DNA of 64,000 nt from an uncultured Chlamydiae bacterium (GTDB lineage: Bacteria; Chlamydiota; Chlamydiia; Chlamydiales; JAJFMA01): NCBI GenBank assembly GCA_963713615.1, contig CAVQMM010000001.1:416001-480000 (forward strand). The letters run 5' to 3'. Each line of letters starts with the position of its first letter. Positions within the stretch are counted from its first letter, which is position 1. Of the stretch, positions 60,524-62,850 are shown one piece after another. The position numbers and the translations under genes are program-made. Under the pieces are notes generated by a model. The model had not been told where the DNA came from. It did no database searches and saw only the letters and a list, made by a program, of their open reading frames with translations.

Positions 60524-62850
60524 TAGAGGTAATTGCAGAAGTATTTGGGCTCTCATGGATCGATTCTTTGAAAAAAAATCACTTTTTTTTGTGAGAAGGC
60601 GATTCTGGAGAGCTTAAGTGGTATGGCACTATCCAGTCTGGAAAGACAGGCTTTTCTCCCTTCCCAGGCCCGAAGGGTCGATATTGCAACAGGCCATGGC
60701 ATCGCCATGGTATATGCCAGGAAGGGATTTCGCAGTCTGAAGGACTGCTACAAGACGCCAGTTTACAAACACCATTTATGCATGCGCTTTATGGCAGCCC
60801 TACAGGCTGCTAAAACCGTTTTGGCATATACCATGGCGATGCCATGGCCTGTTGCAATATCGACCCTTCGGGCCTGGGAAGGGAATGACTCTCTCTTCAC
60901 CGGCATCCGATTTTCAGGAAATTGACTTCGGAAACCGGACTTCTGCAATTACCTCTAAAGGACTTGTAGGACTATTCTTGAGTCCTTTATGTCCCTTAGA
61001 GGTAATTGCAGAAGTATTTGGGCTCTCATGGATCGATTCTTTGGAAAAAAATCACTTTTTTTTGTGAGAAGGCGATTCTGGAGAGCTTAAGTGGTATGGC
61101 ACTATCCAGTCTGGAAAGACAGGCTTTTCTCCCTTCCCAGGCCCGAAGGGTCGATATTGCAACAGGCCATGGCATCGCCATGGTATATGCCAGGAAGGGA
61201 TTTCGCAGTCTGAAGGACTGCTACAAGACGCCAGTTTACAAACACCATTTATGCATGCGCTTTATGGCAGCCCTACAGGCTGCTAAAACCGTTTTGGCAT
61301 ATACCATGGCGATGCCATGGCCTGTTGCAATATCGACCCTTCGGGCCTGGGAAGGGAATGGCTCTCTCTTCACCGGCATCCGATTTTCAGGAAATTGACT
61401 TCGGAAACCGGACTTCTGCAATTACCTCTAAAGGACTTGTAGGACTATTCTTGAGTCCTTTATGTCCCTTAGAGGTAATTGCAGAAGTATTTGGGCTCTC
61501 ATGGATCGATTCTTTGAAAAAAAATCACTTTTTTTTGTGAGAAGGCGATTCTGGGGAGCTTAAGTGGTATGGCACTATCCAGTCTGGAAAGACAGGCTTT
61601 TCTCCCTTCCCAGGCCCGAAGGGTCGATATTGCAACAGGCCATGGCATCGCCATGGTATATGCCAGGAAGGGATTTCGCAGTCTGAAGGACTGCTACAAG
61701 ACGCCAGTTTACAAACACCATTTATGCATGCGCTTTATGGCAGCCCTACAGGCTGCTAAAACCGTTTTGGCATATACCATGGCGATGCCATGGCCTGTTG
61801 CAATATCGACCCTTCGGGCCTGGGAAGGGAATGACTCTCTCTTCACCGGCATCCGATTTTCAGGAAATTGAATTCGGAAAATCGGACTTCTGCAATTACC
61901 TCTAAAGGACTTGTAGGACTATTCTTGAGTCCTTTATGTCCCTTAGAGGTAATTGCAGAAGTATTTGGGCTCTCATGGATCGATTCTTTGAAAAAAAATC
62001 ACTTTTTTTTGTGAGAAGGCGATTCTGGAGAGCTTAAGTGGTATGGCACTATCCAGTCTGGAAAGACAGGCTTTTCTCCCTTCCCAGGCCCGAAGGGTCG
62101 ATATTGCAACAGGCCATGGCATCGCCATGGTATATGCCAGGAAGGGATTTCGCAGTCTGAAGGACTGCTACAAGACGCCAGTTTACAAACACCATTTATG
62201 CATGCGCTTTATGGCAGCCCTACAGGCTGCTAAAACCGTTTTGGCATATACCATGGCGATGCCATGGCCTGTTGCAATATCGACCCTTCGGGCCTGGGAA
62301 GGGAATGACTCTCTCTTCACCGGCATCCGATTTTCAGGAAATTGACTTCGGAAACCGGACTTCTGCAATTACCTCTAAAGGACTTGTAGGACTATTCTTG
62401 AGTCCTTTATGTCCCTTAGAGGTAATTGCAGAAGTATTTGGGCTCTCATGGATCGATTCTTTGGAAAAAAATCACTTTTTTTTGTGAGAAGGCGATTCTG
62501 GAGAGCTTAAGTGGTATGGCACTATCCAGTCTGGAAAGACAGGCTTTTCTCCCTTCCCAGGCCCGAAGGGTCGATATTGCAACAGGCCATGGCATCGCCA
62601 TGGTATATGCCAGGAAGGGATTTCGCAGTCTGAAGGACTGCTACAAGACGCCAGTTTACAAACACCATTTATGCATGCGCTTTATGGCAGCCCTACAGGC
62701 TGCCAAAACCGTTTTGGCATATACCATGGCGATGCCATGGCCTGTTGCAATATCGACCCTTCGGGCCTGGGAAGGGAATGACTCTCTCTTCACCGGCATC
62801 CGATTTTCAGGAAATTGACTTCGGAAACCGGACTTCTGCAATTACCTCTA
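60524..62850. repeat. Tandem array of five ~434-bp MITE-like palindromic units with 39-bp spacers (period 473-474)
   Basis: Units start 60524, 60997, 61470, 61944, 62417; TIR TAGAGGTAATTGCAGAAGT; internal 63-bp inverted repeat around a 102-bp loop. Confidence 0.95.

Follow-up and report, generated by a model that had tools for sequence, protein, structure and literature searches.

Two groups of described repeats come closest to the array analyzed here. The first comprises MITEs of the ISUnCu17 group of IS1182, with which the array unit shares the 17-bp ends of full-size DUF772 plus DDE elements, about 90 bp of subterminal homology, a 4-bp duplication, a lack of coding capacity, high copy number, and host inverted repeats as targets. 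Insertion into host inverted repeats, with inverted-repeat replacement, is described for the IS1182 member IS1272 in PMC5678879. The second group comprises REPIN and BIME-2 repeats with RAYT (PMC2817692) and the TIRtron with TIRYT (PMC3733652). They resemble the array unit in having two inverted palindromic arms homologous to arms flanking a Y1 gene, and in forming tandem modular arrays, also beside a single-copy Y1 gene. PMC2817692 also notes IS elements that target REP sequences and puts forward the rolling-circle amplification of BIMEs by a Y1-type transposase as a hypothesis. PMC6006769 offers a class scheme, 10.1101/2021.07.10.451892 contrasts MITE and REPIN, and PMC3184786 and 10.1101/2024.06.02.596822 have little further bearing on the array. 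A literature search of main texts, mostly outside subscription journals, returned no account of such nesting or of such arrays behind rRNA.

The window, a 64,000-nt stretch (G000:C1:416001-480000, where G000 is the genome under study), holds five tandem non-coding composite repeats behind its first rRNA operon (Table 1). These probably arose through two insertions 43 bp apart in one host hairpin, followed by unequal recombination or slippage, and probably serve no selected function. Judged by homology, the unit is a nested composite, overlooked in the preliminary description: an IS1182-type MITE enclosing a Y1-associated palindrome, set in a host hairpin. Every layer is of a known kind; the nested form is unusual. 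Unlike an IS1182 MITE, the unit contains a palindromic doublet of 228 bp whose origin (Y1) is unrelated, and its family often holds a second nested module with IS66, forms tandem arrays, and has no partner transposase that could be found in the G000 assembly. The tandem modules of alternating palindromes with constant linkers are those of a BIME-type array; unlike in BIME-2, however, what repeats is the entire MITE together with the host spacer, IS ends included.

Table 1. Features of the window, in window coordinates.
Feature	Position	Strand	Remarks
Dispersed family copy with module B	16888..19880	+	IS66 inside module B
Dispersed family copy upstream of 16S gene	53921..54554	-	right arm, cruciform, module B; left arm lost
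First rRNA operon, rest	16S 54961-56511, two tRNAs, 23S 57196-60140		Rfam scan
5S rRNA, end of first rRNA operon	60305..60419	+	Rfam scan
Intrinsic terminator-like hairpin and T run	60429..60465	+	hairpin 60429-60456; between 5S and array
Left arm of host GGAC/GTCC hairpin (putative target)	60484..60525	.	last 13 bp, 60513-60525, recur at 60956-60968
Unit 1 core, 430-bp composite MITE	60526..60955	+	17-bp ends 60526-60542, 60939-60955
Unit 1 left arm	60526..60615	+	homologous to downstream end of IS1182-type element L295
Inner cruciform, REPIN-like doublet	60657..60884	.	63-bp perfect arms 60657-60719 / 60822-60884; inner 17-bp hairpins 60732-60748, 60794-60810
43-bp spacer 1	60956..60998	.	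putative middle of host hairpin, bounded by the two insertion points
Unit 2 core, 430 bp	60999..61428	+	
Spacer copies identical to spacer 1	61429-61471, 61903-61945, 62376-62418	.	
Unit 3 core, 431 bp	61472..61902	+	right-arm variant
Unit 4 core, 430 bp	61946..62375	+	same sequence as unit 1
Unit 5 core, 430 bp	62419..62848	+	
Right flank	62849..62907	.	another copy of GGAC/GTCC hairpin family

The 5 x 473-bp array of the preliminary description is present in the assembly (TRF 60524-62890, period 473, 5.0 copies, 98% matches), with unit-to-unit distances of 473, 473, 474, and 473. Several of its details were reproduced, namely the perfect 63-bp inverted repeat, the division of units by TTGA (1, 3, and 4) or TTGG (2 and 5), the extra base and right-arm variant of unit 3, and a direct repeat, 13 bp long, on both sides of unit 1. 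The terminal inverted repeats given as 19 bp had to be shortened to 17 bp: the two bases before GAGG vary among the 300 ends genome-wide, and base frequencies at these ends show conservation setting in sharply with the first base of GAGG. This makes the spacer 43 bp rather than 39 bp; its reported invariance held, and its reported palindrome proved to be only a weak, imperfect hairpin (DNA, -5.7 kcal/mol). The array unit thus consists of a 43-bp spacer and a 430-bp core belonging to a composite repeat that occurs genome-wide. The five units share one orientation, are 98.6 to 100% identical, differ at 0 to 6 positions (unit 1 being the same as unit 4), and resemble each other more than they do most solo copies.

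BLAST searches with unit 1 returned 535 pieces, located on the chromosome and on contig C3. With up to two mismatches allowed, 300 end motifs were counted in G000, forming 112 facing pairs. The modules comprised 128 left and 125 right arms, 139 cores, and 274 arms of the palindrome. The layout was exactly that of the array unit in 36 of the 112 facing pairs, array units counted in, and most other facing pairs carried an additional 309-bp module B, with or without IS66. At least 227 of the 274 palindrome arms lay within 260 nt of an IS1182-type end, and the Y1 palindrome was found within 200 nt of 213 of 241 main-class ends. Among minor-class ends, 23 of 59 had the motifs of two other Y1-flanking palindromes instead; for comparison, three of the four motifs were matched in 146 of 5000 random windows.

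As far as sequence comparison can tell, the true ends of the array unit are 17-bp inverted repeats of the IS1182 family. Among the matches listed, such end pairs enclose 1447, 1507, and 1509 bp in L238, L269, and L288, which encode 365- to 377-aa transposases with DUF772 and DDE_Tnp_1 domains. NF033551 (IS1182) was the best NCBIfam match of these proteins, at 59 to 86 bits versus a cut-off of 270, and the family label rests on the RefSeq names of plasmid relatives (44 to 49% identity) annotated as IS1182, ISUnCu17 among them. ISUnCu17, the closest named relative (46% identity to the L269 and 40% to the L295 transposase), itself has related ends and a 4-bp duplication. The ends of the array unit matched those of L238 at 16 of 17 nt, and the first ~90 bp of the unit aligned with the end of L295, an element encoding a full-length IS1182-type transposase (73% over 94 nt, E 9.5e-7). 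Related transposases occurred in 17 of 401 genomes of the phylum; paired ends were found at 7 of 20 such loci, four of them with a 4-bp duplication. The end motif was likewise detected in 17 of 401 genomes of the phylum, including G352 (121), G251 (46), and G002 (28), with none in G001 and G003 and one match for a reversed-pattern control; among the matches listed were also records of many other phyla. The array unit is short (430 bp), non-coding, and multicopy, and its ends and duplication length match those of autonomous elements, as expected of a MITE.

Target duplications were compared across pairs. Among the matches listed, 52 of 83 paired elements from other genomes had a 4-bp duplication, a count in which near-duplicate elements were kept and 5-bp offsets scored as misses. 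In G000, 36 of 82 non-array pairs (≤3.3 kb) had one, versus a mean of 4.5 and a maximum of 12 after shuffling. The 46 dispersed pairs lacking it mostly had two like flanks; flank exchange or hairpin replacement therefore appears common and flanks are imperfect records. Exchange between copies would fit these pairs, as would the inverted-repeat replacement set out for IS1272 in PMC5678879. A 13-bp duplication was rejected as the usual target duplication of the family, being seen in 3 of 112 facing pairs, among them the first unit at each of the two rRNA operons. Searches of the 99%-complete G000 assembly with DUF772, DDE_Tnp_1_6, and protein queries returned no IS1182-type transposase, and none of 11 representative loci among its 31 DDE_Tnp_1 loci had a partner adjoining an end motif; the insertion step therefore needs a lost or passing partner. 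At DUF772 genes of five other MITE-bearing genomes, an exact end adjoined a broken gene at one of eight loci. Viral contigs had 20 end-motif matches, none paired, and no Y1 relative.

The inner cruciform is, by homology, a Y1-associated, REPIN-like doublet. A single intact gene for a 150-aa Y1 protein (Pfam Y1_Tnp, with HUH and Y motifs recognized by eye) lies at C1:3243391 of G000, followed downstream by the whole inner doublet, with its loop, in diverged tandem copies; the cruciform aligned with three copies beside this gene (G000:C1:3243391-3243843) at a mean column identity of 86%. Y1 homologs were present in 14 of 151 genomes. Arms homologous to the cruciform were found on both sides of the Y1 gene in L346 and L027 and on the downstream side in L344, as in G000, where they were seen only downstream. 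The close homologs L345 (59%) and L347 (53%) had no such arm at E 0.05. The G000 protein passed the IS200/IS605 TnpA model NF033573 (57.6 versus a cut-off of 55) and failed the RAYT model NF047646 (22.4 bits versus a cut-off of 80), and the doublet is therefore REPIN- or TIRtron-like, not a strict member. Unlike in REPIN/RAYT systems, the arms are ~90 bp long with three small hairpins, and no terminal GTAG/GTGG/CGTC tag was recognized by eye. Six Y1 transposase genes occur in G000:C1 (L011-L016), at least five of them flanked by distinct palindrome families. Within the palindrome array beside the Y1 gene is a 398-aa IS110-family transposase (L005:6907-8103), and an ORF of the same length is found at L010:4449-5645.

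Module B is a second MITE-like element of ~309 bp with 17-bp ends beginning CAT, found genome-wide and, in the window, at 17207-17460 / 19749-19880 and 54181-54489. It resembles IS4/IS231-type elements and may derive from them; no partner transposase was found for it in G000. An 11-bp duplication surrounded 70 of 92 paired copies, the target being mostly the inner palindrome arm, and a palindrome flanking the RAYT at C1:3256780 occurs inside module B. IS66 (tnpA/tnpB/transposase) was repeatedly found within module B, in the window at 17460-19740 and at 18 loci genome-wide, and a 545-aa DDE element, distinct from IS66, was found within it at varying offsets. A 594-codon DDE frame was rejected as the partner of module B: its offset within the module varies, and it is therefore a passenger.

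The outermost layer is host sequence. Among the 300 ends, 209 had GGAC five bases or GTCC four bases ahead of them (GGAC-N5 / GTCC-N4), and inverted runs of 9- to 10-bp GGAC/GTCC repeats flank two TIGR02436/TIGR04258 four-helix-bundle genes. In the same-genus genome G003, which had no end motifs, an empty GGAC/GTCC hairpin lies behind both 5S terminators and aligns with the left flank of the array. A hairpin and T run equivalent to the terminator follow the 5S in G002 and G003; in place of the empty GGAC/GTCC hairpin, G001 and G002 have other sequences. On these alignments, the spacer is most readily identified as the central part of a GGAC/GTCC host hairpin into which the copies inserted. The resulting order of MITE in GGAC hairpins, module B in the inner arm, and IS66 or another DDE element in module B recalls the layered palindrome targeting of REP-targeting IS elements, whereas the outer target here is a repeat family tied to four-helix-bundle genes and not classical REP. 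The two four-helix-bundle genes (L017 and L018, G000:C1 at 1850.8 kb and 3217.6 kb) and two further genes at 1855.2 kb and 1921.8 kb (L019 and L020), which we presume to be PDDEXK_3 (GxxExxY), are each flanked by an inverted or tandem repeat family of their own that is also dispersed, much like Y1 genes and their palindromes.

Arrays of this kind are found more than once. The same spacer builds three arrays and was identical at 16 of 16 junctions: four here, eight in a nine-unit array behind the second rRNA operon, and four in a third array of ~4.6 units (C1:1173286-1175476). The arrays behind the two rRNA operons share orientation, and the outer limits of both are IS ends with flanks of the target type. 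At the second operon, unit 1 had a 13-bp and unit 9 a 4-bp (CTTA) duplication, and the outer flanks were complementary arms of one hairpin, which we infer to be the footprint of two insertions 43 bp apart and subsequent expansion. A single insertion with a 43-bp duplication was rejected, the whole spacer being absent from both outer flanks at either operon. Variants are shared between neighbors (B2-B6; each of the four full C units), and those of the left and right parts occur in shuffled combinations, which fits what unequal exchange and conversion among units would give. Beside the third array, at G000:C1 ~1173170 on the minus strand, a sequence starting GTGCG, which resembles the 5' end of a group II intron, directly follows a palindrome. 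In the window, Rfam identifies a D1-D4 fragment of a group II intron at 31879-31959.

Two proposals can be weighed against these arrays. Repeated insertion at a target regenerated by each duplication, as advanced in the preliminary description, would be in keeping with the 13-bp direct repeat at unit 1 and with the preference of the family for GGAC/GTCC repeats; five independent events of this kind are nevertheless scarcely credible, as units 2 to 5 have unlike flanks (CTTA left, TAAA right) without duplications of their own, and the invariant spacer, single orientation, and near-identity of the units all speak against them. An assembly or consensus artefact, with fewer units in reality or a number averaged over a mixed population, is improbable. 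The family is highly repetitive and adjoins rRNA, and the best listed sequencing run contained only 58% of the sampled words; against this, the chromosome is one 3.9-Mb contig, the three arrays have distinct variant patterns, and the first unit at the second operon holds a nested module B and IS66 insertion with its own duplication. The earlier argument against assembly stutter was strengthened by these array-specific and neighbor-shared variants.

Amplification by recombination or by a rolling mechanism, the other origin suggested earlier, fits the data. In the proposed mechanism, two repeat copies would have inserted 43 bp apart into one host hairpin behind the 5S terminator, leaving the 13-bp and 4-bp duplications; the resulting doublet would have been multiplied by unequal recombination or slippage, and the array would have spread between the two rRNA operons. 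The order of these events, the recombination engine, and the spread between operons are our reconstruction. Further cases exist in G000: a fourth array (G000:C1:2600817-2603362) belonging to another subfamily, with a 455-bp period and its own 22-bp spacer; a fifth (1970823-1972036) with a ~393-bp period, joined by another Y1-associated repeat and lacking IS ends; and four pairs of ends standing back to back in isolation. The route of formation is therefore generic.

Starting from the same precursor doublet, a Y1 protein (IS200-like, RAYT-type) could instead have nicked the inner palindromes and primed rolling-circle amplification, which we consider unlikely, albeit with several observations in its favor. 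The Y1 gene is intact, and diverged doublet copies of its own follow it in tandem; the Y1-associated palindrome occurs in each of the six non-coding arrays with a period of at least 390 bp, including the one without IS ends, as amplification by Y1 would predict (three other arrays of period >200 bp lie within long open frames); and the third array starts inside a palindrome arm, at one of which the fourth array stops. However, both rRNA arrays are bounded by IS ends with target-type flanks and not by the palindrome, the variant mosaics require recombination anyway, and the palindrome, being in nearly every copy of this abundant family, would be found in arrays even without catalysis.

On the preferred reading of two insertions and host recombination, the right flank of the array calls for a further event. 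Unit 5 gets no target duplication from it, and it differs from the flank at the second operon, whose array has a right flank identical over 61 nt to that of the third array. This array and the third array face opposite directions, and their midpoint at 826 kb lies close to the GC-skew maximum at 814 kb (chance about 1 to 3%). An inversion of ~0.7 Mb through repeats, shared with the third array and nearly symmetric about the terminus, would have brought in the foreign right flank; this one event would explain both that flank and the flank of the third array. Ectopic copying from the second operon is an alternative. Genes behind the 5S in G001-G003 match none beside the arrays.

A structured multimeric RNA produced by read-through from the rRNA operon, as suggested earlier, finds no support: the intrinsic terminator lies between the 5S and the array, no promoter-like site was found in 60100-63300, and the array had no Rfam match at the gathering threshold. 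RNA folding, proposed earlier as a check, gave -277.8 kcal/mol for one unit (z -24 versus shuffles), a stability explained by its transposon origin. More broadly, retention of the array for use, as such an RNA or as cruciforms acting as topological or termination elements behind the highly transcribed rRNA operons, is very improbable, even though both operons are followed by arrays of like orientation, the fold of the unit is very stable, and relatives likewise have palindromes directly behind the terminator. Identical arrays exist away from rRNA, and internal frames of 100 and 130 aa shift with the A-run variant and have no family match. The unit was matched in none of the three same-genus genomes examined; matches occurred in 4 of 41 genomes, being G000, two by the palindrome arm only, and one by 28 nt. 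Sampled-word shares in 20 sequencing runs were 0.18 to 0.58 for DNA and 0.04 to 0.06 for five RNA runs.

The window also encodes two tandem paralogous 740-aa ORFs (181-4725, minus strand), the first without a Pfam match, a 3619-aa DUF3638 protein (5802-16661, minus), a family-9 glycosyl hydrolase (20224-22935, minus), and a weak match to a SicP-type chaperone (32442-32894, plus). Very long coding tandem repeats are found elsewhere in the genome, at G000:C3:17419-28098 (a 243-bp unit repeated 44 times within a single frame of 3559 codons) and G000:C1:1-9027 (588 bp x 15).

Beyond this locus, other end classes in G000 carry palindromes of two further Y1 genes, and in a second genome (L187) the same ends surround a related doublet. 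Of 32 interior families from other genomes, 23 folded better than shuffles (z below -3), although MITE interiors are often self-complementary anyway. It is conceivable, albeit doubtful, that IS1182-type end pairs carry host palindromic repeats across many phyla, and that the REPIN-like element here spread mostly inside the MITE instead of by means of its own transposase, with Y1 then amplifying such composites into arrays of variable length that seed terminus-symmetric inversions. The array itself reflects ordinary repeat dynamics and is probably a length-polymorphic marker. Its value lies in a layered record of four nesting repeat systems, namely the host hairpin, the IS1182-type MITE, the Y1-associated doublet, and module B with IS66, and in a compact doublet substrate for asking if BIME-like arrays expand through host recombination or through rolling replication primed by Y1/RAYT. 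It also suggests that DDE transposons can carry REPIN-like repeats along as hitchhikers and so spread them.
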